From NCBI GenBank assembly GCA_964358175.1, contig CAYHOI010000001.1, positions 1-60,028 on the forward strand: DNA of 60,028 bases, read 5' to 3'. A program made the translations under genes and the position numbers. The notes under the pieces are model-generated. The model saw only the letters and a list, made by a program, of their open reading frames with translations, searched no databases and was not told where the DNA came from. Of the stretch, positions 3,001 to 34,629 are shown in pieces. The DNA comes from an uncultured Candidatus Marinamargulisbacteria bacterium. Lineage in GTDB: Bacteria > Margulisbacteria > Riflemargulisbacteria > GWF2-35-9. Positions within the stretch are counted from its first letter, which is position 1, and every line of letters begins with the position of its first letter.

Positions 3001-4180
3001 AGTGGCGGAGATCTTCTGTCTTCGAACGTCAATCAGACATCGTACGCAAAACCTTGGCAGCTCCTCTGGTCAGACCTGAGTGACGGGACGAATGATGTGT
3101 ACGTACGTGTGACGGATAACGCGTTTAACGCTGTTGATCAGTATGTGTTTCATGTGAAGAAGGACGTAACGGTTCCCAGCTATGATCTGTCTTTGGTCGC
3201 ACGCAGTTATCGAAATCCATTTGCGACAGTTCCTGAGGAAATGAGCCATATTACGATCAACTTCTATGACTGGGGCGGTGCCTTTATTCGCGATATCGAT
3301 TACGCGATTTCGATCAACACTATCCTGACCGGGCCGACAATCAACTGGTACCCGATTACCTCGAACTATAACGCGTCCACATTGGATGTGCCCTGGAAAA
3401 TTGACGGCAATCGGTTTCTTAATGGAACCAGCGATGTCTACGTGAGACTCAGCGATTATGCCGGAAATGCTGTGACGAGCGATGTTTGTTTCTCGATATT
3501 CAGGTCAGAGCCTGGGCTGACCTACAATTATGAGTTGTACGATCCGGGAGCGTACACAAGCTGGTATCGAGCCCCGCAGGAGTTTATGGCAAACACAATG
3601 ATTCGGTTCTACGATGTGTCCGGTCTCACGTTGCTAAAGACCCTTCAGTACGGTGTATCCGCGGATGGGCGTGTGACGTGGAATACGATCCGCGACAACG
3701 TAAACTACATGACCTATACTACGCCCTTTACGATCATGTGGGATACGCTCATGGAGGGTACCAATGATATTCTGATCTCATTCAACAACACCGATGGAGC
3801 TCAGATGACCTCCGGCGTACTCTTCACCTTGTTTAAGGATTCCCTCGCGCCGTTGATCGCGTTTGCCATACAGGCTCCAACAGGGTTCGCCAACGCCTCC
3901 AATCACGACTGGCTGAACCATCTCACGGTGAATGTCACCGAGAACGGGTATTCGGCTTTGAAGCGTCTGGAATGGGGGAAACGAACCCATTCGGCGTGGT
4001 ATTCCTACTCAACGATCCTCAGCGTCGCGGGGCAGAAGGTGGCATCGGCTCACTACGCAGTGCCGTGGGATCAGATGGAGGAGGCCTATAATGCCCTCAT
4101 TCTCGAGGCTGAGGACAATGCGGGCAATATCACGTCCGTGAATCTCTGCGTGGTCTCCCGCGATACAATCGCCCCCTATC
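1..4180 (+). repeat. block A: about 13 tandem ~112-aa HYR/Ig-like modules
   Basis: Each module ends with (N/D/E)G(T/S)(N/S)D(I/V)-x3-5-(V/L)xDxAGN-x12-18-(L/F)(K/R/N)Dx2-3P. An example is NGTNDILVRVSDNAGWVVTSGVLFRVLKDDVVPS at nt 2080-2181. The last boundary is SRDTIAPYP at ~4155-4181. Copies are clearly diverged at the DNA level, including synonymous sites. Confidence 0.6.
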
Positions 4181-7100: not shown

Positions 7101-10100
7101 GGGAGGTGGCTACACGAGCGGTGTCAGGCAATACCAGTATTATTACGGGTACAGTATGCAGAGGGATACAGGCGCGGAAAATACGCTGGTGCAAACCAAC
7201 GCTACCGCAGTACAGGAGTGGGCAGGCTATAACGCGCAGGGACTGAGGAACAATCAGTCCACGGGTTGGCGTGCCAAATCGACCAGCCAAGGCGGTTCGG
7301 GGGATGTGAAGTACTTCTATGTGCGAGCGCAGGACTGGGCGGGCAACTGGAGCGACTGGTCAGCTTCTCCTGCTACGACGAAGGTTGATGTTTTCGCGCC
7401 GGCACATCCGATCCCCAATCCAAGCATGAATACGGTGGTGGGGACGACCAGCATGACCTTCAGCTGGTCACCGGTTTCGGATATCGGTGGCGGGGGACTA
7501 AAGTACTACCACGCAACCCTGTATGACAAAAACAAGCTACAAGTCGCCAGTAGCCGAAATATCCCTGCGACGAGGACATCAGTGACCTTTACGGGGCTTG
7601 CCACGGACAATGCGTATGTGCTGAAGATGGATGCGGAGGATGTTTTCGGCGAGAAGATCCCAGCGTACCCCTATTTCTCGCAGGGAATGGTGCCCCGGTG
7701 GGACGCCGACCTTCTATCCGCCTGGGTGATGGTGGATGCCACGCCTCCCGCGCCTCCGAACTATATCAGAAGAAGCGTATGGGCGTTTAACACCAACACG
7801 GCGGATGATCCCCCCGGGCAGATCATGTACAGTGCCATCTTGGATTCGGTGGGATCCGCTGAGTTTGGCAACAATTTCAGGGCGGATTACGGATCGAATT
7901 ACTGCTACTACGGTGCCAATAAAGAGATGAGCGACTATCTGAGTTCCTATGAGGACAAGATCAATGCGAATCTTATTTACTACCGGAATGGGTCAGTGTC
8001 GGACGCGGAGCTGGGTGCCATTTCCTACTCTCTCGGACGTGGTGATTACACTGGAGCGCAATTGCGTCAACTGCTGGTGGATATGGCTTATCTGAAAGGC
8101 GAGGCGCATACGGATCAGTCAGGAGCCAATCCGCGCTACGCTATCAGCGACTATTATGTGAACAATTACCGACCCACGCTGAATATCCCGAATCAGGGCG
8201 GATATTATTATAACGGGGTCTTTCAAAACAGCGAGATCAATACCGTTCAGACGTACGTTAACGGGAGACTGTCGGGGTCTGAGGTCATGAACGCGCTGAA
8301 ACTCAGTGATTTTGGAAGTATTTTGAGTGACGGGAGCTCGTTTCGCGTAACGAATTTCACGCCGGGAATGAATTATGACGATTTCAGGCGCAGCTTGATT
8401 TCCTCACAGCCAAAGCTCAATGGCGTGGTTCTGGTCGGCGATCTGGTCGGCATCAGTGTCAACCGGACGCCGACCGACGGAGTGGCTGTTTTTGACCGAC
8501 TGAAGAGCAAAGGATACCTGGACGTTGCGGGTGTGATTAACCCACTATACGACTTCACGCAAGGGGATCAGGTGTCCGGTGTCAAAAAAACGACTTGGAA
8601 TATTACGAACGCGGATATCTCGAATCGGCTGAAAACAATACAGAGCGACTATCATTCAAGCGCGCTGGCATCAAGTGTGCTGAAAAAACTGTATACGGAT
8701 ATGGGCGCGCAATACGACGAATTGCGCATGGAGCTGAATACAATGCTCACGAGCAACCGTCGCGTGGCCAATCCAAATAACCTTACCACCACCCTGGCGG
8801 ATATCGTGTCGCGATCCCATGGCTATGTCTGGTTCTGGGGACGCGCCGCAGATGATGGTCTGGGCGGGAGCGGGGTATCCACTTGGGAGGTGCAGGTAAA
8901 AGAAGACGGACAGAATGAAGCTAGTCGCTCTCTTTCACTGCCCTATGACCAGCCGTGGCTCAACTGCGCGGGAAGCTATACGTCTTTCCCCGGTTTTAAT
9001 GGAAGTCCCGCGCTGAGTGTGAGCGCGTCGATGAGGCTTCGCGCGATGGACAACGCCGGAAACGCCGGCGAATGGTCGGACTGGCGGGGGGTGACGGCGA
9101 ACGGTCTGCGGGTCTGGTATCAGGCGCCTCCCGGAAACCGTTCTGTCTATGATACGGGGAGTTTGCTTGGCATTAAAAATGGTCGAAGCGATACGCAGTC
9201 CTTATGGGCACAGAATCGCGAGTTGAATCTCTTGTGGGATGGCTCGCAGATGTGGGGACCGGATCTTTTCTATGACTACAGCTCCAGCATGGGGCAGTCG
9301 GACTTGCCACAGGGGAGGACGAAATACCGCTTCCATGACGTGAATGATTCCACGATTTCGGGTGGCACGAACAGGATGTACGTGATGGCGTATAATGCGG
9401 AGAACGAGGGAACCAACGAACTGGTATACAGTCTGGATTACGATGCGTTGCCACCGGACAGACCGTCAATCAGCACTCCTTTAGCTACACAGAACGTCCC
9501 GAACAGCTACACCTTCAGCTGGTCGGGGGGAGCGGATCCGAATCCTGGTTCAGGTCTCAAGAGCTATCATGTGCAGATTGTCGATGCGGACGGAAATGTC
9601 GCGTACGAGCGAACGGACTTCACAGGGGACAGTTATCTGTTTACGGAGGGCAAGTCCGGCAAAAAGTATACCCTTCGGGTCAACGCGGTGGACAACGCCG
9701 GTCTTTCCGGTGAGATTGCGATGACGAACGCCTGGGTGGTGGTGGACAAAGACGCCCCCCCCGCCCCCGATATGCTGTGGGTCAATACCGGAAAGGTGTC
9801 GAACGGCTCGATGTGGAGCAGCAGCGCCAACTACAACGTGTGGCGGTGGGTGCTCCCCCAAGATACGGGCAGGAGCGGTCTTGCGAGCTATAATATTGCG
9901 ATTAACGAAAGCAACAAGGGCTGGCTCGAGGTCACATCGGGAATGATAGACAAGACGACGTATCTAAGCAACGCCCCGATTTTTGCGAAAATCAAATTTT
10001 CAGACAAGGCAGGCAATATCTCCGGGGAGAAGAACAGTTCATACCCGCTCAAGATCGACACCGAGGCACCGTTGATCGACTTAAGCGTGGCGGATATCAG

Positions 10101-13100
10101 AGAGCTTAACGGTATGGTGAACGATGTCTGGCAGACAAGTACGCGAAGCGTCATTTTCTCCTGGGAGCAGGCCAATAAGAACGCGGCGTCAGATGCCCTC
10201 AGCGGTGTGGTCGCGCTGGAATACTACTGGGGGCCGGAAGCCGACAAGACCTCTGGGTTTGCGATCAATACATTTGACAAGAAGGTGACGCCTGTCGGAC
10301 AGATGCCCGCGGGCGCGGAGACCATCTATTTCTTCAAAATGAGATCACAGGACAATGCCGGGAACTGGTCGCCGATGGCGACGCTGTATACCACCAAATA
10401 CGACAACTTTGTGAAATCGATTGAGGATGTGCGGCAGTCTGTGACGACAAACAGGTACTCGAATCAGCTCACGCAAAACTACAACTGGGGAAATGTGAGT
10501 GATTTAACGGGAATACAGTCCTTTGTTTTCTCCTTTTACGTTTCCGGCAATTTGCTTGACAGTATGGATGACGGGGTTCTTACGCGTGACGTGACGATAC
10601 CGTACGACAGTGCCATTTATGATTCTTCAAGTTCTCGGTTTATGGCTTCGGTGATGCTTGATAATCAGTTTTCAAGCCAAGATGTCTATGTCCGGATGCG
10701 GGTGAGAGACACCAATGGGAATGTCTCCATAGCTGGCAACAAATCCGAGAAGATGTGGCTGGATTTCACCGCGCCGAATGCGGTAGACGTCCCCACCATT
10801 GATAATGGGAGTATTATTCACGTGACCAGCAGAAATTTCGGCGTGACCTGGAACTGGACAGCCCCGAAAGACATCGGCGGGAGCGGGTTGTCCTCCTATG
10901 ACACGAAATTGCAGGTGTATTCTGACGCTCAAGCCGTATCCATCAATCCGAATGTGCCCTCGACGGTCAACAGGGCGGTCTACCCGCAAGTATTCACGGA
11001 CAACGTCTATGCATTCAGCATCAGCGCGCATGATCGTGCCGGCAATACAGGCAATATTTCTTTCGGTCAGCTCTTCGTGGTGGATACGGTTGCACCCTCC
11101 GTCAATCTTCAGCTACGAAACGCCTGTTCCGCTTACGGATGGAACCGGCCATTCAAGGAAAATATTTATTATCTGATCAGAGGCAATACTGTGGGACTAT
11201 CGATTTACATGAAGGACAAGGCCTCAGAGCAAATCGGGAATGTTGGCTCCGGCATCGCGTCAATGAAGCTTGAACTCTATGAGCTGGCGACACCGGATAC
11301 GGGTGAGTTTGCGCTGGCATCTGTTCCCACATTCAGTTTGTCAGCGAATAGTATTTGTACTTTTGGGATTCCGATGACCAGTAGCGTGATTCACACGTCT
11401 CAGAATACGCAGTTGTGGCGATACGCGCTTATTTCCGACGACATTGTGATCTCAGACAGCTATCTGTCCAGCCAGCAGTTTGTAGACCCGACCAGCAACG
11501 CGACAGCGAATTTCATTCAGATGACACTCAGCCGGAATTGGACGGGATTCTTCCGACTGTCTCTGAGCGTCAAAGATTTTGCGAACAATGAAACCTCACA
11601 AAACTATTACCTCTATTATGATCCTGTTCCTCCCTCCATTGATATGGGCTTTAGTGGCATGATCTTTCTTTCGACTAATGCGATGGTGTACATTCGCAGA
11701 TTGGATGGAGGACAGAGTGTCATACAGGAAGATGCTTCCAATGGTAGCAAATACGCAGATGAACGATCAAGGATGACCTTCTTCCCGATAGCGGGTTATC
11801 AGCTGTATGAGGTGAGCGGGGCGAATCAACAAAAACTGGGTCTCAACATCACAGGAAGCCGATATTATCCCTATTGTGAGCTTGAGCAGGGGGCGTGGGG
11901 TTCTGGTTTTATGGTACTCTCTACCAATGCCAAGTTTTATGTAAGGGTGTTTGATGAACTGAGCGAGGAAATTGGATTTTTCCAGGGAGGCGGGAATCAA
12001 CCGAATCGATCATGGGATGCCGCTGGGGACATCTTAATCTCAAGCGAATCCGGACGAATCAACGTGAATGGATACCAGCTACCTTTTGCGAAGTACGGTC
12101 TTATAGATGACTTTTACCAAAATGAGGCGACGAATCGTTTGACCCATAATCCGGAACGGAATGTAACATTCCTAGATTATGCCAGAGAGTGCTTGGAAGT
12201 ATCACTTAACGCCGATGTGGTTGATGGAACCAGATTGGTTCTAGGTGTCGCAGATATGGCCGGAAATGTGACCACCGTCAGTTCGCTACCGGTCTATCGA
12301 TCTTCGCCGATTATCTTGGTGACGGCAGATGCGTCGCTACAGTATCCTGTCCCACATTCCTATAACCGCCGCTACGGGACGCAATATTCTTGGGGGGATT
12401 ACACTTATGGTACACAGAGGGTCAGCGCAAGTTTCTATGTAGACACCGTCAACGTGTACGTATCGGCGAACATGACGGTGAGTAGCGAAGTGCACAGCCT
12501 GCGCGATGGTTTGCAACAACCCTTTTTCTTCGCACAAAATGGGGTCGAGATCAATCCGTACTCAGGACTTAGTGCCACGGGCTATAGCGTCTCAGGAAAG
12601 AGCACGATGAATTATGTTTACTGGGGGCAGTTCAGCGTGGTGACGCTCAGCACGGGTGCGCAAACCCCGCTTTTGAGCGGACAGGGAAAATACATTTCTA
12701 TCAATGTGCCCAATCGGTACGGGGACAGCGATGTATCCATTCGGGTGAGCTACAGCGTGGACGAGGATTATCCTTCGCTGACCGTAAACACCTTTTTTGT
12801 CTATCCGGCGATTCCCATCGTGAATCCGACGGTGGACAACAGACTTGGCGCGATGAGCATGACCACCAACAGGGTTGCCATTACTTCCGACGGGGTCGAT
12901 GAAATCTCCGGAATTTTTCCTTCCAGCTTTTTCGTGACACAGCTGTCTGAGTCGCTTCACAGCTTGAAAGAAGTGCTGTTTATCCGCGCCACGAACAGCC
13001 TCAGCACCCCCAACTGGATCAGCGCGAACAACGAAGGCAGTAATGGCGTATGGCTTACCGATAACGCGGGAGTGGGGCTGTCGGATACGCCTTTCCTACA

Positions 13101-16100
13101 CCGTTTACGTCAAAATGGCTTAATCACCACCGATTGGCAGGCGGGCTTTGAGGGGCTGTCCGGCACGGTGACGCTGGGTGTGAATGTAATGGATGTCATC
13201 TGGCGCGACAAGGCTGGCAACTATTCAGGCACCACGAATTTAGCGATTGTCTATGATCGTACGCCTCCTGAGCTTCTGGCGGTGAGCCTGAATGCGGACT
13301 GGGTCGATGCTGCGACGACGGTTTCGATGGTGTTCGAAAAGCCCTATCAGAGTATTCAGGGCGGAACGCCGATGCTTCCCAATGATCCGATCAATAGTTT
13401 GCATGCCTTCTACATGGATGGATATCAGGGACTCCGACTCTATTTTCGTATCAGCGATAACGCCAAGGTGAACGGATGGTTGTCAGCCGATGCCGCCGAT
13501 GTCAATACGGTTCGTGTCCAGTGGACGACAAACAACACCTACTGGCATTCGTACACGGTTAACGGGGGCAGTTTTAATGTCTATCAGCCCAGCGGGGATT
13601 TCGGGGTATTTAAGATAACCCAAAGCCATGAGATTGAGGCGCGAAGACCGGCACTGAATAATGGGGAAGCCTTTAATTATTGTTTCTTCGTAAGTGCCAG
13701 TATGATCATCAGCGATAATGCGCTTTTCGGATCAGGTATTCCGGAAATTGTGACGCAGAACCAGGCCTATGCCTTCAGAATTGATTTATTGGACTATGCG
13801 GGAAATGCTTCCCGTGCGACCGGCTCCTACACGGTGAATATCGATAATGACCGATCCAATCGCAGCGTTGAGCTGACCATCTCAGGGGACAGTACCGTCA
13901 ATACGGCCAACGCGAAGATCGTGACACAAAACAGTCATGGGGCGGGACTGCTTAACAGCGAGCTGTATACCCCGCAGGATTGTGATCCGTTTGCGGCTCC
14001 AAACGAGAAAATCTACAACGATGGCCAGATTTTCGCCAAGCTGGGAATCACTGTCAATACACTGGTCGGCAGAGAGTACGCGCTGGTTTGGACGACGATG
14101 AATCCGGTCGTACAGCCGTTGAATAAGCCCTCTTACGTGTATTATGCCTATGGGAAAATTGGCTGGGCGACCAGTAACTCAAACTTCGTTGGAACGGGTA
14201 ATTTCGCCTTCGACTTCTTTAATCCGACGCCGGATATCGGCAGAACGGGACTCAGTAGCGGTCTGCCCTACTATGCCACCAACAATGCCTTACTCACTTT
14301 GCCAACCACCGACACGGTGATTCATCTCTTCGTAGCCCCGATGGGGGTCGCGGGAAATCCGATTAACATCGATTCGGGAACATGGGCAACCATCACCATC
14401 GATCTGTCCGCTCCAATACTTTCCGGAAACAGTGCCCCCTTTTATCTGCATGATCTGGCCGGAACGACGCTGAATGCCCTGAAGGGATTGTACGTGTCCC
14501 GAAGCGTTATCGAAGGGGATTGCCCGGTTGCCCCGAGTTTTGACCCCATGGCACATTTGGATTTTCTGGGTCTCGGGAGTTACTTTTTCCAAGATGTACA
14601 CCGCTCTACGCATGTGCAATTCGGGCGTGGTGACTACGTGGATCTGCAAAGCGGTATGCCGACGAACAATACTTTTCTGCGCAAGAAGGTTTACCGCGCG
14701 GATGTGGCTGGAAGCAATGGCTATCTGTTTGAACAGCTTAGCAGTGAGCGGTACAGTAGCATTGCGAATATGATTGATACGGATCTGGCAGCCTTTGGAG
14801 AGGGTCTTTACCGATTTGATCTGTATACCAGCAACAAAGCAGGTCTGGTTACGAAATCGTCTTTTGCGGTGGTGATGGATGGCACGCCCCCGACGATCAA
14901 TCAGTTTGCCTTTGAGGTATCCGTTTCACAGGATTATGAGCCGGTTAGTGTTAACTATTATGGGAGCCAGAATATCCGAATTTCCTGGAGTGCGAGCGAT
15001 AATATGGGTGTTTCCTCCAATGGGCAGCTGACGGGGGGCGATTCGAGCGGGATATGGTTCTATGAGCTGAGGTTTGAGAATCTGACAACCCCCTCCGTAA
15101 AAGGATATGTGTTCAGTTCGCGCAACACGACGATTACTTGGGATCAAGGACTTGGACTTGCCTTTGTCCCCACCAAGGCGATTTCGACTACTTTGAATTG
15201 GCGTGATGTGGTTGGCATCATTAAACTTGGTAAAGTTCGATTCACCTTGAACGCCTACGATTATGCACTTTTGACGATTTCCCGTTCTCATGAAGTCTAT
15301 ATTGATTCCGGAAACGAGGTGCAATCCATGGTTAGCCTAGCCGACCCGCAGGAAGATAATGTGGACAACCAGCAGGATGGGGAGAGTCCCTCTGAATCCT
15401 CTCAGGGAGCCTCAGGATACTTTGATCAGACGAGCATCAATCTGGTGATTCAGTTTTTACCGACTGCGTTTGATACCACCCAGCTCAATCGTGCCTCACC
15501 GCAAAGGACTCATCTGCCGATAGAGGTCTTTCTGGTAACCCCCGGTTCCGTGGCGGCTGTTCCTATCAGCACCAGCCTTATTGTCGTGACGTACAGTAAT
15601 AGCGCGAATCTTGATGTACAGGGGGCTCCAACAGCAAATTTAGCTAATTACCGCCTGACACTGTCGGTGGTCGATACCAAGGAGTTCGTAAAAACAGGGG
15701 GCTATGAAGGACCGGTGACGCTCTCCTATAAGATTGTGGATGGAGCGGGATATCGATCCGCAATGACAAGCATTTTTACAAGGGTGACGATCGATATGTC
15801 CGCGCCTACAGGGAGCTATGGTTTTCATGAGGGGCTGAAATTTATCGGAAGCGATAATACTTATTTTCTGTACGGGGTCAGTGAGAATTTCGCCTTTGCG
15901 ACAACGACGAGTGGAACAAAAGTGTCTGCCAATTATGAGGATGCCCATTCAGGATTGTCATCGAAGCCCTATCGGTTTATGGTCAGCCTGAACAGTCTGG
16001 CCGGAGCCTATCAGGGAGTTGACAAAGACATGGGCTGGCAGGCCAGAACGTCCTCTCCGTTTGATCTGCTTTCTTCGGAAATTTCGACTTCAAACAAGTG

Positions 16101-19100
16101 GTACGCCGTCAAGCTGCGGGTTCGCAATCAAACCGGTGTGGTGGCCTATAATACGCTGAATGTGATTCTGGATACACAAACACCCAATATTTATTTCTTT
16201 GCTGTTTTGCAGGAAACCGCGAGTAACGAGTATGCGCGAAGTGCCGAAAACTTCGTGGGCAAACGGGCGACCACCATCAATTGGGGGGCAAGCGATAATG
16301 TCTTCAGCGAATCCTTCGGAAGTATTTTTGGTGTGACAGGAAACTCGCACCAGGGAATCCGGCAGTACCAGCTTTCATTTGCCACCCCGAATGTCAGAAG
16401 TATCAGCGCGGACATTTTTCCGGCGATCACAACGAACATTGTGACCGTCGGGTATACCGAGTTTGTGATCGGGGAGGGGGTTGTTCGCTATGTGATACGC
16501 GCCTTTGATTTTGCGAATAATGAAACGGTTGTGACCAAGGGCCCCTACTATTATGACTGGACAAACACCCTTCACAATCAGGTTGGCCAGATACTTGCCG
16601 TCACGGATAACACGGATGAGGATGGGGATGGGATATCGCCTGTGTCCGCCAATGGTGTTTCGGGGTATTTCGATCAGCCGACGATTAGTATTCAGTTGAT
16701 ATTAAGCACAACCGCTGATGACGCCACCCAGCTGAACTATTTGTCTGATGCGCACATTCCGGTAGAGGTATTTGCCGTGACGAACGCTGTGATGACCAGA
16801 ATTGCAGCCTCGCAAATCTGGGCGACTTATGATCACAAATTGCTGATCGACGCTCATCCGAATCTGGCGGCCTATAGCATTGCCATCACGATTAACCTAG
16901 CGGATATTGTGTCGCGGGATCGCTATCAGGGCGGAGTGACTCTATTCTTTAAGCTGATTGACGGCGTCGGGAATTTGTCGTTGACCACCAATACGCCTTT
17001 GCGTTTGACGGTGGATCTGAGCGCGCCGACCGGACAAATGCGGGTGCTATCGGGAGTGACATTTCAGGGAAGCACCAGCAACTTCGCACAATACGGGGTG
17101 AGTACGAATATGCTTTTTACCAGTGTGAATGCTGTCGCGATGGATCATCAGTATTCGGACGCACACAGCGGACTTGCGATCAGCTGGAACAAGGTGACCG
17201 TAATCCGTTATCCCCTTGAGGGAGGGGTGGGGACGGCTGTAAACCGTGACTGGTCAGATGTGAGCCAGGTCTCGATCAACAGCGTCCAAGCCATGATCTC
17301 GAACAACCTTTTTCTGGTGGAATCGGATATCCTCAATGGCGTTGGGGAAGTGGCACACTCGGCGACTTGGAATGTGGTCTTTGATACCGTGCCCCCCACG
17401 ATCAACGCAGAGGATTTTATGCTGACCTTCAACGTGCTGAGCGGAGGTTACGCGCCCTCATCCGTAAACTACCTCCAGAGTACGACACTCGACTTGGTCT
17501 GGGTGGCGACGGATAATGTTTTTGCCAGCTCTCCGAATCTGTTCGCTGTTTTAAGTCATCGGGGCGTGTACCAGTATCGCCTGTCTTTCAGTAAGGACGG
17601 TCAGACGTTTACCTCAGTCAGCGCAAATATGATGCCTGCGGTGAATAATCATCTTTATATTTCGCCGAATGAGCTACTGGGGACGATCGGGGAAGGCAGG
17701 GTATACTTCAAGCTGGAGGCTGTGGACTTTGCCGGAAATTGGAGTAGTCGGAACATAGGGCCGTATTTCATGGACTTGCAGAACACCCTGAATGAGCAGA
17801 TAGTGCGAATTGAGCCGGTAACTGCCAATAACGATAGTATGCCGGATTATTTTCAGAAGTCTCCTTTCGACGCGAGTGGCAAGAATGGTTATTTTGACCG
17901 GGTCAGTGTTGACTTTATCATTCACCTTTCGCCCAATGCGAGCGATTTGACCCAGCTGAGCTACCTTGAGGGAAGCTATATCCCCCTTGAGGTATATGTA
18001 GTGACGGACGGTGTGAAAAAGGCGCGGGTTTGGGATAGCGACATCCATGCGACCTATAACCGTGATGTCCTGCCCAGCCTTAACGCGACATCAAATCTGG
18101 CCTCGGTTCCGATTGCCGTGACCATTAACTTCAGCAATTACGTTGGGACAAGCAATTATAACGGGCGAATTCAGTTTTACTACAAGATTATTGACGGTGC
18201 GGGAAATGTTTCAGCGACAACCAATACAGATATGGCATTTTTGGATGTCACGGTAGATATGACAGCTCCGGTCGGAAACAGCCGGTTCGGGGAAGGGTTC
18301 ACGTTTGTAGGAAGCGGGAATACCTTCGGCTTGAACGGTGTGAGCGATGATGTTGCGTTTGCCAGACAACTAAGCAATCTGGTGATCAGCATGGATTATC
18401 AGGATGCTGAAAGTGGCCTTGCCATCAGCTCGAACTATTTTTCTGTATGGGAATACAGCCTTACTCATAATTATGTGACGAGCGGGAATCGTGGTTGGAC
18501 GAATGTGCCCACACTCAATCTGTCGGATATGGGAACGATTACCCAGAATCGCTGGTACAAGGTCGTTGGGTTTGCGGCTAACAATACCGGGGTGATCACG
18601 AAGGCGACGACGAGAAATGTGATTATCGATCTGGTGGATCCCGTGGTCGTGACGTTCTCCCTATCCGGAGAGCTTCAGAGCGGATCAGACTATGGCAGTA
18701 GCAGTCTCAACTTTGCGCAGGTTCAGACTCTGAATTTTGTCTGGACTGCTTCCGATAATATGTTCTCGGATCTCACGATTGGTGAGTTCAAGCAGAAAAA
18801 TCACCAAGGGATTTCCCTGTATGCCTTTCTTTACAAGGTCAACGGGATCGATTGGGTGACCCTGAACGGCTCGATTACCCCGACTGCGCAGAACGAATTT
18901 CAGGTGGATAAAACCACGGTGAATAGTCTGTTTTCAGGCAAGAAAGCCTTTTTTAAGCTGGTAGCCTATGATTTCGCGATGAACCAGTCTTCAAAGGAGT
19001 ATGGGCCTGTTTTCTTTGATTCAGGAACCGTTCTTGAGCAAGCGATATCTGCCTGTATTCTGGAAGACAAAACGGATGCCGATGACCTGGGAGGGTCACC

Positions 19101-22100
19101 GTTTGATGTTTCAGGACAGGGATACTTTGATCAATCCGTGCTTAAGATGAGGCTCCAGCTGATGGATACGGCGAATGACGTGACCCAGCTGAGCACCCTG
19201 CCTTCCGGAAATATCCCGCTGGAGGTGATGGCAACCTTTTACGGGAGTAACCGTGGTTCTCTTTACTTCTCAAAAGTCTTTCCGGGGAATTTGCAGAAAC
19301 TGTCGGCAACCTATAATTACGGTCGGTTGCCAACGATAGACGCAGCGAATAACCTGGGCGGGATCACGATAGATATTTTAACGCTGAATCTGTTCGATCA
19401 GATAGAAGGCTCGGGTTGGAATGGGGGTGTAGGTCTAAGTTTTAAATTGATTGACGGTGCGGGGAATTTATCAACCGATTGGTCCCGCGAGTTTCGTGTG
19501 ACCGTCGATGTTACCCCTCCGACGGTGGCTTTGTTGTGGGGAACGCGTGATTATTTTGTGACAGGGAACGATGAAACATTTGACCAGTTTGGATTTGGTA
19601 AAAGTTCTCAATATCCGGTGAAGTTCCCCTATGTGGGATTCAGTCGGCAGATCCAGTCTCTCAGGTTAAGCGGAAATGCTCAGGACCAGGATTCAGGGCT
19701 ACCGACAGGAGCTTATCGATATGATGTGACTCAGTTCGCCTTTTCCAACCTGAGTTCAACGGTGAATTCAGATTCAACGGGCTGGACAGCGACTCCGACC
19801 CTCAATCTGTCAGAGCGGTTCACGGGAATGATTGCTCCGAATTTCGCGTATCGGGTTGACTTGCATGCGCGCAATCAAGTGGGGCGTACGTCCATCTCGA
19901 CCAATCTGATTATTCTGGATGATGTCGCGCCCACTTTTCAGGCGATGAATCGCTCCGAACCAGTGGGGGGTGACTATTCAGCGACGAGCAAAGATCTTTA
20001 TTCGCTACAGGATGTTCTTCTGACCTGGCGGGCAAGCGACAATTTTTATGCAGAGAATGCCGGTGGCGAAGGAAACTTCTTCAACGCACGCGATCATCAG
20101 GGAGTCTATTTCTACCAGGTTTGGTATGAGAAAAATGGGGTAACGGCTTCTATAACGGAAAATATGCTGGCATATGCTGACAACGATTTCGTGGTATCGA
20201 AGGGGTATATCCGGCAAAGCATCGGCGAAGGAATCGTGACCTTCAGTATTCGAGCAACGGATTTCGCAGGCAACACCAGCGTTACCACCAGCCGCCTGAG
20301 ATTTGATTGGAGCAACACCATTAATCTTCAAATTGCTGACATGATTTCTGCGATGGACGCGACGAATAGCGATGAGGATCTGTGGGATAGAAGGCAAAGT
20401 GACAAGTGGGGCGACTTTGTTGATGATGTCTCTCCTTTTGACGCATCGGACGGACAGCTTGGGATTTTCGACCAGACGGTTATTCCCGTCCATATCCGAA
20501 TCGCTGAGAATGGATATGATATTTCTCAGATCAGCGAACTGACCCCGAATCACATCCCGTTTGAGGTCTATATTTCGCATGATGGACAGGTGCTGACGAT
20601 TAATCATGATCGAATTTGGGTGACTTATGACCGCAAAACAGATATCGAAAGCCCCTCGAACATTGCGAGCCGAAACTATTGGCTGACCGTGGATGTCGGA
20701 GAATGGGTTGGCGTTGAACCGCTCCATAGGGGTGCTTTCCAGCTTCTCGTGAAGGTCATTGACGGCGCGGGTAATCTCAGTAGCTTTGACACGAAGGAAT
20801 TCAGATTAACCGTTGACAGGACACCGCCTACGTCTGATGCTTCCGCTCCTTTTTATTTTAATGAACCGATAGGCTGGGTAACCTATAATCCCCTCTTTCT
20901 TGACGGGTATAATGGCGTGGCTTTCATCAATACGACCCATTTCAGTGCGCAGATGGTTTCCTTTAATGATGCGGAATCGGGGCTTTCAGAACAGCCCTAC
21001 TGGATGAAACTTGCTGGGGTGGGGTTCAAAGACGAAAACGAAAATCAAGCCGACAAAGGTTCTGTTCAGATAACCTGGCAGACACAGGAAGCCTTCACGG
21101 GGGTCAGTCTGAGCGAATTGGGATACCAAGGGCTGACCGGCGGTGGCGTTTTTGATCTGTTTTTTAAAGTTCGCAATAACGCGGGCATCGTGACGTACAA
21201 TCTGAATTACTTGTGTATCGATTTGCTTAAGCCGGTTCTGGTTACCTTCCAGCGCACCGAGCATATTGACGTCGATCAGGATGGCTACCTGCCCGAGGAG
21301 GATACCTATTATAACAAACAGGCAATATGGCTGACTTGGGATGCTTATGATAATCTGGGATACAGGGGCGATCAGCCGGCTGAAGTCGTTACAGGTGATC
21401 CGGATGCAATTTGGTTCTATACCCTGAGCTGGACATGCCGAAGCCTGACGGGGAATATGGTTTCCTCCGGCGATATTCTGACGCCAGGAATGCGCTTGGA
21501 TGCGAAGCAATGGTTCCTGCCTACCAGTGGGGTTTCTGTGATTGACGATGTATCCTATGGGATTTCGATCTCGGATAATCTCAAAGAGGGAAATGTTGAG
21601 TTTATTCTGGGGGCTGTGGATTACGCACTCAATGTGACAACGAAATCCATGCAGGTGGTCTTTGACTGGACGAATCGAGCAACGGCCAGTTCAAATTTTT
21701 ATTTTGTCGCGGATCAAACCGACAGTTCAACACCAGCTGACGGAGTCATCCCTGAAGCAGGCTACTTTGATCAGACAACGATGACCGTGGTCATAACGCT
21801 TGATCATGTGATTGAATTAACACAGTTATCGACCCGGAATTTGAAAGTGAATTATTCAACTGGGAATTCAGGCTCCGAACTTAGTGTAATGAATCCAGAG
21901 GATTATCGCTACAGCATCGAGGGTGTGGATGGGAAGTTTACGGTAACGATTGATTTTAATTTGGCACCTTATTTAATGACCTTGAATGTCGTTGAAGGAC
22001 AGCCAGTAAGGAGCGGGGTAGTTTCGTTAAACATTACGCTATTGGATCGAGCAGGCAACATGCCGAGTGTGCCTGCGAATATGGGGTGCAGGGTGACTGT

Positions 22101-25100
22101 GGATATGCAGTCTCCCTCTTTGGAATCGTCAGGTGTATTTGATGTTTATCTTTATCCAGACAAGGATTCGATGGGAGATGGGATTGATCCGGAGAACGGG
22201 TATCTGGACGATTCCTTGCCCTATATCACCGTGACGCTGAATAGTCGGGTTACCTCCAATGGTGCTGCGCAGATGGATCAGTGTCTCAATGTCCGGCTGT
22301 TTGATGATAGCCGGATACAGAAGGCTTCAGCGAATACTTTTGAGCTGATCTCAGAAAACAGATCCCTCATGATCGTTGTGACGATGGATAAGGGTGGATG
22401 GAGCGTTCCTCTGCAGGCTGATCAGCAGATTGCGACTCTTCCCTCGGAAAATAGCTATACGTATGAGTTTTACCTGAGAGATAAAGCGGGAAACATTTTA
22501 AGTAGAGTTGTGACGCTGAATTATGATCGGACTCCTCCTGTTTTGCGGGATCGGGCTTTTGTGTACAAAGTCGAGCCGGCTAAGGGAGAGGATCATGGTG
22601 GCGATGGAATTGATCCGCTTGCGGGATATTATGATTCGCCTTTCGCGACCGTCAACATCCAGCTGAACATCCCCAATTGGACAGTTGGATACGGGAACAG
22701 TCTGGCCTCCTCTTACAACGATGGTGTGTCAGAAAGTTATCACGGATCGGGAATTCGGAAACGACCCCTGTTTGTCAGGCTTGAGTCCCTGACTCCCTTG
22801 AATATTCCTGGGGTTTACGCAAGCGCGACTTATCCCGGCGGGCATTTCGGAGCTGAGCTGACCGCGAACCTGTTTGCTGTAGGGATTCCTCTGACGCGCG
22901 ATGCCGCGCGAATCATCGTGATGATGGCAGACCGAGCGGGGAATGTTGTGACCCTTAATGACACAAACAGGGTGACCATGGACGACAGAATGCCCTTCGG
23001 CATATCCTTCAACCTGGTGGATACGCGGGACGTGAGCGGTATCGGCATTTTTCCGGTGTACGGCTTTTTTAATCATCAGGTGATTACGTTTAACATTGAG
23101 GGTAGCCAGGTGGATAGGGGATTGTCGGGGCTTCGCGGGAACAGATTTGTTGTTTCCACGGCCAACGGAATCTGGAAGAATTACACCTATCAAAGTCGAT
23201 ATGTGGATCCAGAGCTAAAAGAACAAAATGAACCTGGGACAGACAGTCCGCTGATAGGTTCGCTACGCCTACCCACCGGAACCGTAACGGTCTGGGCAGG
23301 ACTTGTGGATCGGGCAGGGAATGTCGGGGTGATTTCTCAGCCCATTGTAGTGGATATGACCCCGCCCTCTATCAATTTATTTAGTTTGGACTTTGCCACC
23401 AACAACAAAGGTCTTCGAGGGGATATTGATTCTCACGGGGACGGCGTAGACCCCTATTATGGGTACTGGGATGAACCCAGCGTGAATATTGAGGTCGTCT
23501 CGCTCAGCTATGCCGAGGACTACCGGCGTAGCAATGACGTATTTGTGAAGGACTACAGATATACGCATGTTCCCGTGATGCATGACTTTGGGTTGGGTTG
23601 GGTGACGACCGAGAACAATATCGGACAAAGTTCCCGCGTTTTTCGTGAAATATATGTTCCGGAGGGCAATAGTCAGCCGATTGTTGTGTATGTGGCTGAT
23701 TTGGCGGGCAATGTGGTGTCTCGTCAGATTCTGGTTACGGTAGATCAGACCGTTCCCGCAGGGTTTGCCCAGATTGTTCTGGATGTTGATACAGACAGCC
23801 AGGGAGATGGCGTGGATCCTTTATATGGGTTCTTTGACAATGTCGAGGTCGGTCTGGTTATTTCAGAGAATACGGCTGATAGTAGCGGGTTTCGGGTGAA
23901 TCGCTACCTGATTCGGTCAAATTCCGCCAGGACTCTTTCCTATAATGTCCATGACTACAAAAACAAGGATAAGTCGGAGTCTTTGCACAGACCAATAGAT
24001 CTTGAGCAAGGGGATCAGGTGGCTTTCGGGCAGGATAGTTCTCAAATATTCAATTTCAAGCCTGCCAGCGAAGATGAAAAGCAGATTGAGATTGTTGCGG
24101 GAATCAGTGATTGCGCGGGGAATGTCCGGGAAGTGACGGCCTCCATTACCGTGGATACCCAGCCTCCGACCGGTGATTTTCAGGGAAAACTCATCACGGA
24201 TACCGATAGCGCGCTCGACGGCATAGATCCGCTGGAAGGGTATTATGACAGTCTTGCCGTGAGCGTACTGCTGTCTTCAAATGTTGTGGACAATATTGGG
24301 ATGAGAACCAATCGATATTTTATCAAAACAGGAGATGCCGGATTTCTGACGAGCTATAACGCTTATCCGTACGACGGCAACCATTACTTCTCAGAGGGAG
24401 CCGATGTGCCGGGTATAGGAAAGTTTGGTTCCGCGACAGGATCCATTACGGGAATTACCTATAACGCGCAGGGCGTGTACGAGGTTCATGTAGCGGTTGC
24501 GGACGGAGCCGGTAATCTTTTGGAGAAGACCGTCCGGGTGACCATCGACCTGACACAGCCATCCTCCGTTCCAATTGTTCGGCTTGCGCCATACCGCGCG
24601 GGCGGGAATCGTGTGGAGGCAGATGAGGGCTGGTATGGGAGCAATGAGGTTGATTTTTACGCGGAGTTCAGAAACGGAGCAACCGATGAATTGTCAGGAC
24701 TTCGCGATGTGCCTTACGTCGCGCGAGTGGTGACGCCCGGAACGAATCAGATTTCCTGGTTGCTTGAGCAAAGGGATCCTGCTTTCAAACAGATATGGGT
24801 TCCGGAAGACAGGAGTATTACAAAAAACAGTTCATTGTTCGTGGGACTCGTGGACCGCGCGGGGAATGTTGCGAGTGCATCTGTCCCGGTTCATGTAGAT
24901 CTGACCCCGCCGACCGGAAATTTATCTCTCATCATCCGCCCTGACAGCAAAAATGATGCCTCTCAGCTGATTCCGGAGAGTGGCTATTACAATGACAATA
25001 CAATGGACTTGCAATGGCAGATGGTTTCGGATTATTTGGGGTTAAAGAGTAGGCCGTTTCGAGTAAAGGCTAATGAGATGCCCTGGAGTGATAGCTTGAA

Positions 25101-28100
25101 TGTTACCAGCCTTGAAGATTTCAAGGTGAACAATGAAGGAACCGTTACGATTCAAATATTGGTCGCAGATCATGCAGGCAATATTCTCATTGAGACTGCA
25201 TCGATTATTGTGGATACACAAGTGCCAACGGGAATGGTGGTTTCAGTATTGTCTGACAATACGGATAGTGGTCAGGATGGCCTATTGCCCGAAGCCGGAT
25301 GGTACGATGATCCGCTGATTTCATTAAGTTGGACTGCCGCGACGGATAACGGAAGTGGCCTTCGAGATAAACCTTATCAAACGAAGAGTGAAGTTTCTAA
25401 TTATGACCTGCAACAGAGCACGACAACTGCAACGGTGGAAGCAAAGGTTAAATATACGTCCTACGAGGATCGGGTATCCTCTAAGTTATCAGTTCGTGCT
25501 GTTGATAGAGCCGGGAATATTTTGGAAGTGATGGCGTCAATCAACGTTGACCAGCGAGTTCCTGAACCCTATACGTTTACTGTAAAGCCTGATTCGCAAG
25601 AAAATCCGACCTATAATCCTTCTGCGGGTTGGTACAATGATCATACCCTAGAGTTGGAGTGGAGCGAGTCTCTTGATTTTGGTGGAATGCGCACATCTGG
25701 CAGTGTGTTGGCAAGAGTGGCCTCGGACATCCCATGGGTGACCTTGAATGAAAATGTGAGTCAGACCAATAATGACACTTTCTGGGTTTCTGAAGATGTT
25801 TCTGCAAGAACACTTGTTACAAGGATGGTAGACCATGCCGGAAATGTTCGGACGCAAGCAAGCAATGGTTTCAATGTAGATCTGACGCCGCCAACGTTTA
25901 GTCAGTTGGCTTTGGTTGGGGATGTCGATGTTCATGGCGTTGCGCTTGCGGCTGGATGGTATGACGATCAGATGGTTCGCTGGAAATGGTTTGGGGCGGA
26001 TAATGGGGGACTGTTTGATGCTCCGTATCGTTACCATAACTTGGTTTCCCCAAACTCACTTTGGAGTGATTGGAATGGACAGACGGGTGTTGAGATTTTG
26101 ACGACATGGGGGATTCCTCAGTTTTTTGAAGTAGAATTGCGCGATCAGGCGGGTAATCATATTACCCGAATAGAAAAGGTGAATGTCGCGGGATTTGCAC
26201 CGTCGGGAAATGTTAATTACTTTCTTAGCATAAATGTGACGGAGGTGACACCCGGATGGACAATCACTCCAAATGTAGGATGGTATGCAAGCCATACGTT
26301 GAATGTTGTGATCACCACAAATTATCTAAACCTCCTTGAACAGCAGAAGTTAACAGAGGACTTGACATACTATGTGTATAATACGAATGGTCAAACGCAG
26401 CCGATATATCAAGGAATTCCGACTTTTAGCAAGGTTATTTGTGGGGAGAGCGGCCGGGCAGGACTTACCGTTGTTTATGGTATTTTACTCAAGAGCGGCT
26501 TGAGGATTGAGGGGCGACAAATTATCTTTGTTGACACCCAGCCTCCGCAGGATTTTTCTGCAACTCTCCGAACGTGTACAGACCATGGAGGAGATGGTGT
26601 TTCACCGGAATCGGGATGGGTGGATACGATGAATTTCCACATTGATCTTCTTGCTCCGAAGGATGGGGGAATTCTAAGAGCTCAACCCTACCGGTATCGA
26701 TTTGCAGTCCCAACCGGTTCATGGAGTGATTACCAATCGTCAGAAAAAATTGAAAATCTTCAGATTTCCGAGAATCGAGCGTATATCGTTGAGGTCTCGG
26801 CAGTGGATTGTGCGGGAAATATTGCAACAGTTTCTGTTTGTGTAACTGTGGATACAATGCCTCCAACATTTAACGGCTTGGAGATTATCCTCATTCCGGC
26901 AACAAGTAATCAGGGAATTGAGCCTGTTCCGGGCTGGTATCGGAACGATAGTCTAAGTGGAAGTGTGACATGGAATCGAGTGACCGCAGATGACCTGAGA
27001 CAAAACTTTTTATATGTGAGAACAAATAGCGCGAAAACAGTAGGCAATTTTTCTGCTCTGACATTTGATGCCAAAGTGGTTCCGGCTGATATACTTCCAA
27101 TAAATATAGATGTATTTATTGCGGATCATGCGGGAAATGTTGCTCGATCAGCTAAGGTTATTTATTCAAAAGTGACCGTGCCAGGGAATAGTTACGTGAT
27201 TCTTAAACGAGACGGAAATCATAATCCGTGGTTTAAACCTGAAGAGGGATATTATGGCCGACTGAGCGTGGATGTTGAGTGGGCTGAGCCAATAGGTGGG
27301 GGGCTGAGAGGACGACCCTATCAGATCCAGAGCAGCTTATCCTCTAGTCGCAACTGGACGGCTTCTCAAGACGGGAAAGCCTACAATGGATATGCTGTGA
27401 GTGAAGGTGTTCAGGAGATTATTGTTCGTGCGGTGGATAAAGCTGCAAATATTGCAACGTTTTCAACCCTTGTTTCGGTGGATGTGACCGCGCCAGAGCC
27501 GATTGTTCTCTCTTTGGTGCAAGATCTTGACAACGATTCTGATGGAGCTGTTCCATTACAAGGTTTTGATGATGACGGGGTGATTACCGTTACATTTAAT
27601 CCTGTCTTTGATAATGTGGCATTGAGAGATAAGCCCTATTGTTCTTTATTGGGGGATTTAGAGGATATCCCGTCGGGGACAGTTCTGAGCCTTAGTCGTG
27701 AGGGTTATGCGACTCTGACAACTTCGGTAGAAGGAATACAAACTGTCTCGGTGGTAGCAGTGGATCGAGCAGGAAATTACCGAATTTCCATAGTAACCGT
27801 GAATGTGGAAAGAACGGTTTCAGAGTTTACGGTGAGCATTAATCGCACAGAGTTCCCCGTGTCGGCAAGCCTGATTGTTTCGGTGTCGATGACGAAGAGC
27901 ATTTCAAGAGTGCCGGGAGTGGTACTTTCGGTTGCTGGTGTGGATTACGGTCTTGCAGTGGTTCGTTCAGAGATTTCGCAGAATGTATTTATCGGAACCT
28001 TGGATGTGGGTGTGGTGGTGAGCGATGGTATTGGAATTCTTCGTTTCAGCGTCATCAATGATGCAGGGAAAATTGCCACCCAATCCATAGGCATGGTTTT

Positions 28101-31100
28101 ACCGATTTATATCCATCGGTTTGTCCCCGAGGAACCTGTAGTGTCATTCTTTAGTCCTTCGAATGGAAGCCGACAATATACCAATTCATTAAACGTTTTG
28201 GTGTCTTCAGATATGTCCCTGTCGCATCAGGATTATCTGTGGCTGATTACGGAGAATAGTACGCCTCCGACCCTTATGGATCCGAAGTGGACGACTCTAA
28301 ATGGGGAGTATCGCCTCGCAGAGGGTTCAGATGGCACCAGAAACTTATGGGTCTGGGTAAAGAATAGTTATGGGATGACTCTGCGGGCTGTTACTGCAAA
28401 TATTATGTTGGATCGTTCTTTGCCTACTGGGAACGTCAAAGTGGGACGAAGCGAGATTTGGTTTGGCAAGCAAACGTTCCTTCTGGAAACGAGTAAATTA
28501 CTGCCCGTGCCCCCTCAAGTCCTTCTCACCTTTGCTAGGGACGGAGTGACTAAATCTATGAATGTGAGTGGGGCGAACGGGAAATATCGAGCTGATTTCA
28601 CCTTTAAGGAAGATTTTGGTGAAGGGTATGTGACGATTCAGATTCAGATGGAAGACTATGCGGGGAATGTGTCTACCGTGAATATTGGCGCAACCAGGGT
28701 GCTCTTGAAGGTGATGTATCCCCACAGCCCGATTTTGAAAATAATGGATTTGGCGACTCATCAGTTGGATTATACGAACAACTTATCCAAAATCTATTGG
28801 AATTTGCTGGTGACCAAAAATAACTCAGAAGAAACATGGACTGACCAAAAATGGTACATCATCGACGATGTGACGGCCAATCGGCCTGAAGGCTACGATC
28901 CGAGATGGCTGGAATATTCTCCACAGCAAGGGGTTACCCTGCCTTCCGCATCCTATTTCAGGATGTATGGTGAGCAGGGCATCGAAACGAGTTCGTATAA
29001 TCCCCCAAAAGGCTATTTGAACAAGATGTTTTATGCATGGTTTAAAAATAGCGGAGGGTATGTAAGCCTACTGCCTTCAGTCGCAAGGATCACCGTTGAT
29101 GTGACTGCGCCCTCGGCGACCCTGAACTACCTCCCTTTACAGGGGACGACCGATGCACAGCTCAAGTTAACTCTTAACACTAGCGAGGGGGTAACGGTTT
29201 ACGGTTCAAAAATGATTCATTCAGATGGGGTGAATTCTTTTGAATTCATTGGATCTGGCAACCTATGGCTGACAACTAATTTGGGGGTGCGACCCTCAAA
29301 ACATCCTTTATTCTCAACTGTTATTCAGGATTATGCGGGGAATCAGACTACATTAGATGTTGATCTTCAACCCTATTTACAGATTTCAAGTATTAATTGT
29401 GTTACCCAGAGTGTTTCTCGGCTGGATAAAGATATCACTCTTCTTAGAATAGAAGTTTCTGCGTCAACTAAAGTGATTCTTTACGGACTTGTTATTCAAA
29501 AAACAGGAGATGATGGACACCGGACGCTGAGGACAATGCGATTGGTGAGTGGAAATACAGTGCTCAGCACTGCAACGTTCCCCAAAGACCAAATGACTGC
29601 GGAATTTGTCATGAAGGGTGGCGGTATGGTGATCACTCGACCCACTGTGCTAACCGTACGAGCTGATATTGAGGCGTCGGCAATGGAGCCGTTTGCTCTC
29701 AACGTTGATCGAAGTGGCTGGAAGGTGGATACCTATAACATTGCCTTAGAAGAGAACTTGCCATTTACTTCTGCCCCTTTCCAGATTATGGATGGAAGTA
29801 ATGAGCTGAGAATCTATCTTGAAGATAATTCTTGGCGTACTCAAACGGTGAAAGTCCATCAAAACGACAGAGATATTCTTCTTGGACAGTTCAATATGGA
29901 AAGTTACCCCTATAGTACGATGCTTAAGATGATTACCTTAAATATATCTGGAAATCTTACGACTCCTGGTTTGAGCGGGGTTCGGTTGATTCGAGATAGC
30001 AATTACAATGGGGTTTATGATCAACTCGAGGATGATCAGGTTGGCAATAGTCAAGCACAAGCACCAAAGCCAAGCACTTTATTGCTTAAGGGTCTTGATG
30101 AGAAAGTATCGCAAGTAGCGCAGAGGTATTTTATTGTGGGGGATATAGCATTAAGCGCGACCGTAAATAATTCTTTTCAGTTTAAAATTGCATCGAAAGC
30201 GGATGTTCAGCTGGGAGACAATCAATTTGTGAACGAGCGTGCACTGCCAATGTTGACCCAGACGAACACTGTGCTTCCTTATGTTCCAAAGGTCAGCCTT
30301 TCCGTTCGGAATGCTGTGAGCGAAGATGTTTTCCAGAGTCAAACCATTCAGCCCTATAGTTACTTGAGGTTTGCGACCGATTATCGTACGAGTAGTTTGA
30401 AAGAATTGGTCTTTAGAGTGTCCTGTAACATGTCTTATGACAATGTCGATATAATCAAGCTATTTATTGTAACTTCAGACAGTGCTGTGATTAATGTCTC
30501 GGATGAGCAATCTGCCAACACTCTAAAAGATCAAGATAAAATTAAAATGACCATGACGAATGAATTTCTCGTGACATCGAGTGGACGTTATTTGGCCGTT
30601 GGAATGAAGTTGAAGCCGGGTACTTCAACCGGACAGTTGCAATTGGTACTGCTTGCCGAAGGTATATCCTTCAATGAATCGGGCAAAAATGAGAATACAA
30701 GCAATCTTGACTTGGGACTTCTCAATATTGTGGATCTGCACCAGCCGATTTTTGATGGGGTGGATGTTCCACGGTATATCAATATAGCGGATCATGTGTC
30801 CTACAATTTTGATGTTGGCGTAAGTGCAGATCATACTGTGGTTGCTACCCTTGAAGTAGCGATTGGAAGTGATAGTGGACAGGAGAATGTAATGGCATGG
30901 ACTGCCTATGCTTTCAACCCACCAGCAGCCTATTTTGTGGACAAGGCCGGGGTGATGAATGGGCTTGCCTTGCAGCACAATCAATCGTATTTCATGAAAA
31001 TCCGTGCGAAGAGTTTTGATTCAGCAGGAGACTATGTGTCGACGCAGAAAATTCTGCCCTTCAAGGTGGATATGACGCCCCCGGTTGTGGCTCAAGGCGC

Positions 31101-33279: not shown

Positions 33280-33332
33280 CTTTTCTGCGATTGTTGCGGT
33301 TCGGTCTCTAATCGATTATGATGAAGGAGACA

Positions 33333-34618: not shown

Positions 34619-34629
34619 GGAGCGGTCGC

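Follow-up and report, generated by a model that had tools for sequence, protein, structure and literature searches.

Giant proteins built from tandem immunoglobulin-like (Ig-like) domains are known from bacteria and from muscle. In the bacterial surface proteins SiiE and MpIBP, calcium ions at the interfaces between Ig-like domains stiffen the joints. Other bacterial stalks grow in ordered multi-domain blocks, as in the two-module repeats of SasG/Aap (G5-E) and Ebh (FIVAR-GA). In titin, the super-repeats of the A-band match the thick-filament period; tandem Ig domains above some level of identity co-misfold, and dissimilar neighbours avoid misfolding. Margulisbacteria recur in lists of the phyla with most huge proteins, although these proteins are uncharacterised (bioRxiv 10.1101/2023.11.21.568195; PMC11573180). 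Here we describe one such protein, encoded in a stretch of 60,028 nucleotides (the window) that is contig CAYHOI010000001.1 (C1) of a 1.94-Mb, 154-contig metagenome-assembled genome (MAG; GCA_964358175.1, labelled G000) of an uncultured Candidatus Marinamargulisbacteria bacterium. The protein contains a super-repeat array of six triplets, each a string of three domains in the order D3-D1-D2, which gives 18 Ig-like domains at amino acids (aa) 4838-7369 (window positions 14512..22107, + strand), as delimited by domain hidden Markov models (HMMs) and unit profile matches. The array is likely to be a fixed-length, probably Ca2+-stiffened, extracellular stalk segment of a giant fibrillar adhesin-like protein.

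The array was first noticed in a reading of the letters alone (the sequence-only reading), which reported landmark motifs recurring in a fixed order in units of about 1.25 kb. The motifs do recur in one order, six times and at the reported spacing. WxASDN starts at nucleotides (nt) 14986, 16282, 17500, 18742, 20026 and 21337, and G(Y/I)FD(Q/R) at nt 15415, 16663, 17887, 19120, 20461 and 21760. The pattern [IL]DG[AV]G[NY] is matched exactly in units 2-5 and by variants in units 1 and 6, and DAxSGL has five starts only (nt 15940, 17158, 18403, 19684 and 20968). When unit 2 is compared with the others, units 1, 3 and 4 align over their full length (27-37% identity, E 3e-35 to 7e-74), unit 5 over most of its length (E 2e-39) and unit 6 in its D1-D2 part (25% identity, E 3e-12). 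Homology across the six units is thus end to end at 25-37% identity (E 3e-12 to 7e-74), with unit 6 taking part through its first two thirds only. Matches of a six-unit profile start at nt 14890, 16183, 17404, 18640, 19930 and 21232, which places the boundaries of the sequence-only reading (~14880, 16180, 17400, 18640, 19930 and 21235) right within about 10 nt. The sixth match covers profile positions 1-288 only; as had been noticed, the sixth unit lacks the DAxSGL part and leads into the following block E, which shares the opening loop of the GYFDQ-bearing domain. Alignments, unit profile and domain HMM map support the proposal that entire composite units of ~420 aa, all with one internal order, were amplified as blocks.

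The count of units has to be revised. On the protein, the three domain HMMs match in the order D3, five times D1-D2-D3, and then D1 and D2. The leading D3 is a domain at about aa 4838-4962 (nt 14512-14886) whose HMM match spans aa 4877-4960. This match is weak (E 2e-6 within the giant protein and 6e-8 on a 200-aa slice), and the domain immediately precedes unit 1 in six of the seven genomes compared (E 2e-10 to 7e-6). Because of this leading D3, the array begins ~370 nt before its earlier start, and in the phase D3-D1-D2 it consists of six complete triplets, not of the five and a half units first proposed. All triplets lie on the + strand and were mapped with hmmsearch. Triplet 1 (14512..15804) has a diverged D3 at 14512-14886, D1 at 14893-15309 and D2 at 15313-15804. 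Triplet 2 (15805..17025) has D3 at 15805-16176, D1 at 16189-16563 and D2 at 16564-17025, with domain E-values of 3e-36, 3e-36 and 5e-58, and triplet 3 (17026..18267) has D3 at 17026-17391, D1 at 17413-17778 and D2 at 17782-18267. They are followed by triplet 4 (18268..19518; D3 18268-18633, D1 18646-19023, D2 19030-19518) and triplet 5 (19519..20826; D3 19519-19926, D1 19936-20313, D2 20314-20826), whose D2 carries a 15-aa insert within its Asp-rich opening loop. Triplet 6 (20827..22107) comprises D3 at 20827-21225, D1 at 21268-21672 and D2 at 21700-22107; its D1 (E 5e-16) and D2 (E 6e-9) are the most diverged copies, and the units at this position form a clade on a long branch of the unit tree described below. 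Block E (22108..27830, +), delimited by motif positions and contexts, blastp and self-comparison, is a tandem series of single modules of 105-150 aa. These modules open, as D2 does, with a strand, an Asp-rich loop and the signature GDG(I/V)DPxxG(Y/W/F)(Y/F)(D/N), and blastp links unit 2 to aa 7810-7859 within the block. By this shared opening signature, D2 is a module of the block-E type set into the triplet.

One unit comprises three beta-sandwich Ig/FN3-like (FN3, fibronectin type III) domains strung head to tail, as judged from a predicted structure. Unit 3 as delimited in the sequence-only reading (17398-18639) was modelled with AlphaFold2 from 35 aligned units of seven genomes. The model is all beta and confident (mean predicted local distance difference test, pLDDT, 89.1; predicted template-modelling score, pTM, 0.79), and its strands fall into three clusters. 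D1 occupies residues 1-128 of the unit (motifs WxASDN...HxGIxxY...DFAGN...FD) and D3 residues 291-414 (motifs ...DAxSGL...W...N..G.V...D). D2, at residues 129-290, begins with a strand and the Asp-rich loop DNxDxxxDGxxP and continues through GYFDQ...TQLS...IPxEV...IDGAGNLS...TVDxTxP. Approximate domain lengths are 124 aa for D3, 128 aa for D1 and 160 aa for D2, which make a unit of ~410-430 aa. Foldseek searches with the whole unit gave 288 Protein Data Bank (PDB) matches at E<=1e-3, the best of which are three-domain rods: SiiE BIg50-52 (2yn5) ranks first (E 3e-11), and titin FnIII A84-A86 (rank 7), the RII region of MpIBP, gp130 D4-D6 and contactin FN1-FN3 are among the other top matches. 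The three strand clusters and the three-domain rod matches indicate that the unit has three sandwiches. The sequence-only reading had foreseen 4-5 subdomains; the structure prediction that it proposed did give a confident model, but one of three domains. GYFDQ...IPxEV and IDGAGN...TVD, which had been counted separately, are two halves of D2, and D2 modelled alone folds as one sandwich (pLDDT 83.6) with low confidence in the Asp-rich loop (residues 17-24). Foldseek matches of D2 alone are generic Ig/E-set sandwiches only, with template-modelling (TM) scores <0.5.

The three domains differ in kind. In hhalign comparisons D1 and D2 are linked at E 3e-4 with a probability of 41%, and D3 is unrelated to both; this near-absence of kinship indicates that the triplet combines three different domain types. 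An origin of the triplet by triplication of one ancestral domain is unsupported by these comparisons, given only the weak D1-D2 link and the unrelated D3. Residues without variation are mostly D, N, G and P, located at domain ends (D126, D287, P291 and D411) and in the opening loop of D2. None of ten single domains scanned (three D1, four D2 and three D3) passed a Pfam gathering threshold; the bacterial Ig-like families considered were Big_3_2 (PF12245), Big_13 (PF19077), Cadherin_5 (PF17892) and Big_9 (PF17963). The best sub-threshold matches, Cadherin_5 at 19.2 bits (cut-off 26.5) and Big_3_2 at 18.5 bits (cut-off 23.3), cover only the DGAGN strand of D2; D1 has only unrelated matches at chance level (E about 0.1), and D3 has no match. 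No NCBIfam model reaches its cut-off on D1, D2 or D3, and PDB sequence profiles contain none above threshold that names D2; the statement of the sequence-only reading that the GYFDQ domain could not be named holds for all three collections. The best PDB sequence match of D2 is SiiE, at a non-significant E of 0.058 and through the closing strands G.YTLSV.V.D.AGN...VTVD.

The array is old. Tandem Repeats Finder found nothing in the region, and a blastn self-comparison (word size 7, E<=1e-3) returned the self match only. The repeat is thus visible at the protein level alone, which indicates that it is neither a recent amplification nor an assembly artefact; both explanations were ruled out by the lack of a DNA-level repeat and by the presence of the same array in six other genomes. 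A unit profile search of 40 related genomes gave nine positives, all in the same taxonomic order; 29 genomes at a greater distance (28 from the phylum, one from the class) gave none. Profile matches in relatives sit in open frames of 5,000-17,000 codons. The arrangement of the window, with five full units and a partial one in an unbroken series, also occurs in six other genomes, which belong to two families; array length is 6,975-7,560 nt, i.e., within about 4%. A maximum-likelihood tree of 42 units from 7 genomes groups the units by position and not by genome, with u1, u3, u4, u5 and u6 each forming one clade. The six position labels need 5 changes on this tree, which is the minimum, against 27.8 when labels are shuffled. 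Units that share a position have a mean identity of 37.8% between genomes, and units at different positions within one genome have 29.0%. Because units cluster by position and not by genome, the six-triplet array was complete before the two families split, and no unit has been gained, lost or homogenised since. Entire three-domain blocks were duplicated to give the triplets, in an ancestor shared by at least two families of the order. The tree also suggests how the array grew: u2 and u3 are the closest pair, u4, u5 and u1 come next, and u6, at the end of the array, is the most diverged.

Block amplification has also taken another course in the same order. In a genome of a third family (G006), the D1, D2 and D3 types occur in ~1,200-aa blocks at aa 836-3771 of a 4,141-aa frame (L109, G006:C73:1-12426, - strand); two of these blocks share 77% identity, and a third, incomplete one reaches 65%. 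This amplification is much younger and of a higher order than the six triplets of the window, and the locus can thus still undergo block amplification in the lineage. In a search of 1.84 billion representative proteins, six match the whole unit (E<1e-30), and other matches touch the generic DGAGN/DFAGN strand only, which makes the composite unit lineage-restricted. Named full-unit homologs are labelled 'hypothetical protein'; one (P0006) comes from a Candidatus Riflemargulisbacteria MAG. Another homolog (P0005), from a 3.2-kb contig with the bin label 'Syntrophales bacterium', is probably a mis-binned fragment, because every other line of evidence assigns the family to Riflemargulisbacteria. 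The window RecA is 78% identical to that of a Candidatus Riflemargulisbacteria MAG, with the next best at about 66%; this match anchors the window taxonomically, and the label of P0006 agrees with it.

The gene that carries the array is larger than the window. Its 3' part is a single open frame of 10,574 aa (1..31725, +; from the list of open reading frames, ORFs) cut at its 5' end by the contig start. The complete ortholog in genome G008 has 16,989 aa and an N-terminus (...RKALHNLVVSLFFLFLLGNSYVFSA/TITP) that is typical of a Sec signal peptide. Its first 433 aa match contig C4 of the same MAG as the window, on the minus strand (35% identity, E 8e-47). There, a 5,885-codon frame (G000 C4:~1-17650, locus L107, -), whose start matches the signal-peptide-bearing N-terminus of G008, runs into repeats of the type found at the beginning of the window (block A) and then off the start of C4. 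The match on C4 and the frame that runs off the contig within such repeats indicate that the assembler cut the giant gene within the block that is most repetitive. The full protein is thus at least 16,459 aa long, which agrees with orthologs of 16,438-16,989 aa. Self-comparison divides the part in the window into four: N-terminal repeats of ~110 aa (aa 1-1400), a middle part with weak periodicity, the super-repeat (aa ~4840-7370) and the 105-150-aa modules (aa ~7370-9280). Within the middle part, aa ~1400-4830 (window ~4200-14500) have sparse internal similarity and a few sub-threshold Ig-like matches; any functional head domain distinct from the stalk would have to be located here or in the missing N-terminal part. 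Pfam matches on the 10,574-aa protein are scattered Ig-like ones (Big_13, Big_3_2 and Cadherin_5) and C-terminal FN3 and FlgD_ig domains only. The protein is acidic (pI 4.7), poor in Cys (0.26%) and rich in Asp, Asn, Ser and Thr; the super-repeat alone has a pI of 4.5 and 0.2% Cys. No hydrophobic or transmembrane segment was found in the whole protein. Long antisense open frames of 174-241 aa lie inside the giant gene at window positions 20005-20727, 20986-21510, 4009-4734 and 5692-6342 (all -), and are most likely shadow ORFs of a biased coding strand.

The one candidate for a sorting or anchoring signal that the window contains lies at the C-terminus. An FN3 domain (31165-31365, +; Pfam fn3) is followed, in the last ~75 aa, by a tail that resembles FlgD_ig and the C-terminal domain of type IX secretion system (T9SS) substrates (31453-31680, +), which matches Pfam FlgD_ig (PF13860) at 35.9 bits and passes the cut-off of that family. 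The C-terminal 574 aa match FN3, FlgD_ig and the PorZ tail only, the latter at 34 bits against a cut-off of 260. A FlgD_ig-type domain occurs in four other ORFs of the genome, at G000:C15:22008-22208 (+), C72:5388-5603 (-), C67:9894-10064 (-) and C138:2670-2873 (-). These carriers include ORFs of 2,537 aa and 696 aa that end in the same type of tail, and a 278-aa ORF that may be a real FlgD. The sequences suggest a putative C-terminal sorting or anchoring tail shared by large surface proteins of this genome.

These features can be combined into a likely mode of operation for the stalk. The protein would be exported through the Sec pathway, and its FlgD-Ig-like C-terminal tail may hold it at the cell surface. 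At the ~3.5-4.5 nm per Ig-like domain known from SiiE and MpIBP, which is assumed for this estimate, the 18 domains would form a beads-on-a-string rod of roughly 60-80 nm within a fibre several hundred nm long. The conserved Asp, Asn and Pro residues at domain ends, together with the Asp-rich loop of D2, may bind Ca2+ and stiffen the joints by analogy with SiiE and MpIBP. Rotation of three dissimilar domain types could keep neighbours too unlike to co-misfold, as argued for titin.

Several points weigh against this interpretation. Calcium binding is putative, as suggested by the character of the motifs and by the SiiE analogy, and the fold matches behind the shape and length of the rod have low global TM scores (0.35-0.48). 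For the putative secretion or anchoring route, Por_Secre_tail (TIGR04183) reaches 18.9 bits against a cut-off of 23, and the T9SS machinery marker SprA_N (PF14349) has no match in the genome, with control genomes equally silent. The stalk role and the surface location are both predicted from the sequence and the structural model. Moreover, the conserved copy number could reflect position-specific functions rather than mere length.

Alternatively, the array could bind ligands. One domain of each triplet, most likely D2, would then act as a lectin- or carbohydrate-binding-module (CBM)-like domain, and the six copies would have related yet distinct specificities. D2 is larger, at ~160 aa, than a plain Ig domain; its copies at different positions are merely 22-41% identical, and among its weak fold matches are accessory domains of a glycoside hydrolase family 5 (GH5) mannanase, CBM9 and streptococcal Siglec-like binding regions (E 1e-3 to 1e-2, TM about 0.4). 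However, all structural matches of D2 are generic Ig/E-set folds below a TM of 0.5 and none is specific, its conserved residues are structural and near the domain ends with no recognisable pocket, and modules of the D2 type also form the long, monotonous and stalk-looking block E. A multivalent binding array is therefore an unlikely explanation for the triplets.

A somewhat less plausible explanation is that the array is a molecular ruler or periodic docking rack, with a period that matches a periodic partner or the register of lateral self-assembly into a bundle, a sheath or an S-layer-like lattice. The strict conservation of six copies with positional orthology across two families and the narrow range of array lengths are what a ruler would show, yet any old array that no longer recombines would also show positional orthology. 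A pTM of 0.79 suggests a defined inter-domain geometry, and the Deinococcus HPI S-layer protein (8cka) is among the fold matches at rank 5. Against a ruler, no candidate partner gene was found next to the giant gene, whose downstream neighbours encode a hexapeptide transferase, a J-domain protein and chemotaxis/flagellar proteins, and the ~1,200-aa blocks with the same domains in G006 mean that a six-triplet register is not universal. The boldest version of this idea, in which the array is a bacterial extracellular counterpart of the titin A-band ruler, with period and exact copy number selected through triplet-by-triplet docking on a periodic partner or on sister copies, is improbable. If true, the cell surface of these small-genome Margulisbacteria would carry a bundle or sheath that is ordered and has a defined length. 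It is equally improbable that the triplet pattern is a neutral relic, a trace of unequal crossing-over in a three-domain register whose order and number have no present importance: active block amplification in the lineage (77% and 65% identical blocks in G006) and the stepwise internal duplication suggested by the unit tree fit such a history, but the open frame extends through 31.7 kb here and through 5,000-17,000 aa in relatives, all 18 positions are kept in the 6-7 genomes compared despite about 62% divergence, and purifying selection on the whole array explains this retention more easily than drift. A fixed-length stalk segment thus remains the favoured interpretation.

Directly 3' of the giant gene, the window (31935-36496, +) encodes a hexapeptide-repeat transferase, a J-domain protein, CheD, CheR, an HDOD protein and FliM, with CheA, CheW-REC and a sigma factor further downstream. 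The 28 kb that follow the giant gene showed no gene for secretion of its product and none for a partner.

Literature on giant or Ig-like proteins of Margulisbacteria and on bacterial super-repeat adhesins yielded general surveys only. The present analysis provides a domain-level anatomy for one such protein and adds three Ig-like domain families that lie outside every Pfam model. New features are these three undescribed Ig-like sequence families, the ~410-430-aa unit and the exact copy number with positional orthology. The array shows that a super-repeat of three domains can keep its number and order unchanged across families, and it offers a natural test case for whether super-repeat order is selected (for avoidance of misfolding, stiffness or register) or is merely historical. 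Profiles of D1, D2 and D3 would let annotators recognise such genes, which are usually fragmented in MAGs.

Among known systems, SiiE of Salmonella enterica (53 BIg domains; 2yn3/2yn5), LapA and MpIBP (5irb) are likewise giant, acidic, non-fimbrial surface proteins made of tandem Ig-like beta-sandwiches. SiiE is the closest in detail: its BIg50-52 are the best structural match of the whole unit, and the closing motif D.AGN...V.VD..xP is common to both proteins. The Asp-rich junctions suggest that the joints may be Ca2+-stiffened here as in SiiE and MpIBP. The domains described here have 124-160 aa and belong to three unrelated types in strict rotation, whereas those of SiiE have about 90-100 aa and are of one type, and sequence similarity to SiiE is non-significant (E 0.058). 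In contrast to SiiE, LapA and MpIBP, the protein has neither RTX repeats nor a C-terminal signal for type I secretion (T1SS); it ends in FN3 and FlgD_ig domains, and its ortholog has a Sec signal peptide. It is therefore not a member of the T1SS giant-adhesin family. Titin A-band super-repeats of 7 or 11 Ig/FnIII domains (8bnq, FnIII A84-A86) resemble the array in that different beta-sandwich domains follow one another in tandem and in order, same-position domains are more alike than neighbours, and each position has its own ortholog across species. There is no homology with titin beyond the fold; the giant protein is bacterial and extracellular, and its unit has three domains repeated six times. 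Ordered multi-domain super-repeats are classic in titin, and the sequence-only reading overstated the case when it called repeats of this size unusual. The array shares with SasG/Aap and Ebh the growth of a giant adhesin stalk in fixed-order multi-domain blocks. Its super-repeat design is titin-like in organisation and an ordinary way to build a giant adhesin, so that no new mechanism is revealed; what is less common here is the size of the domains and a strictly conserved copy number with positional orthology.

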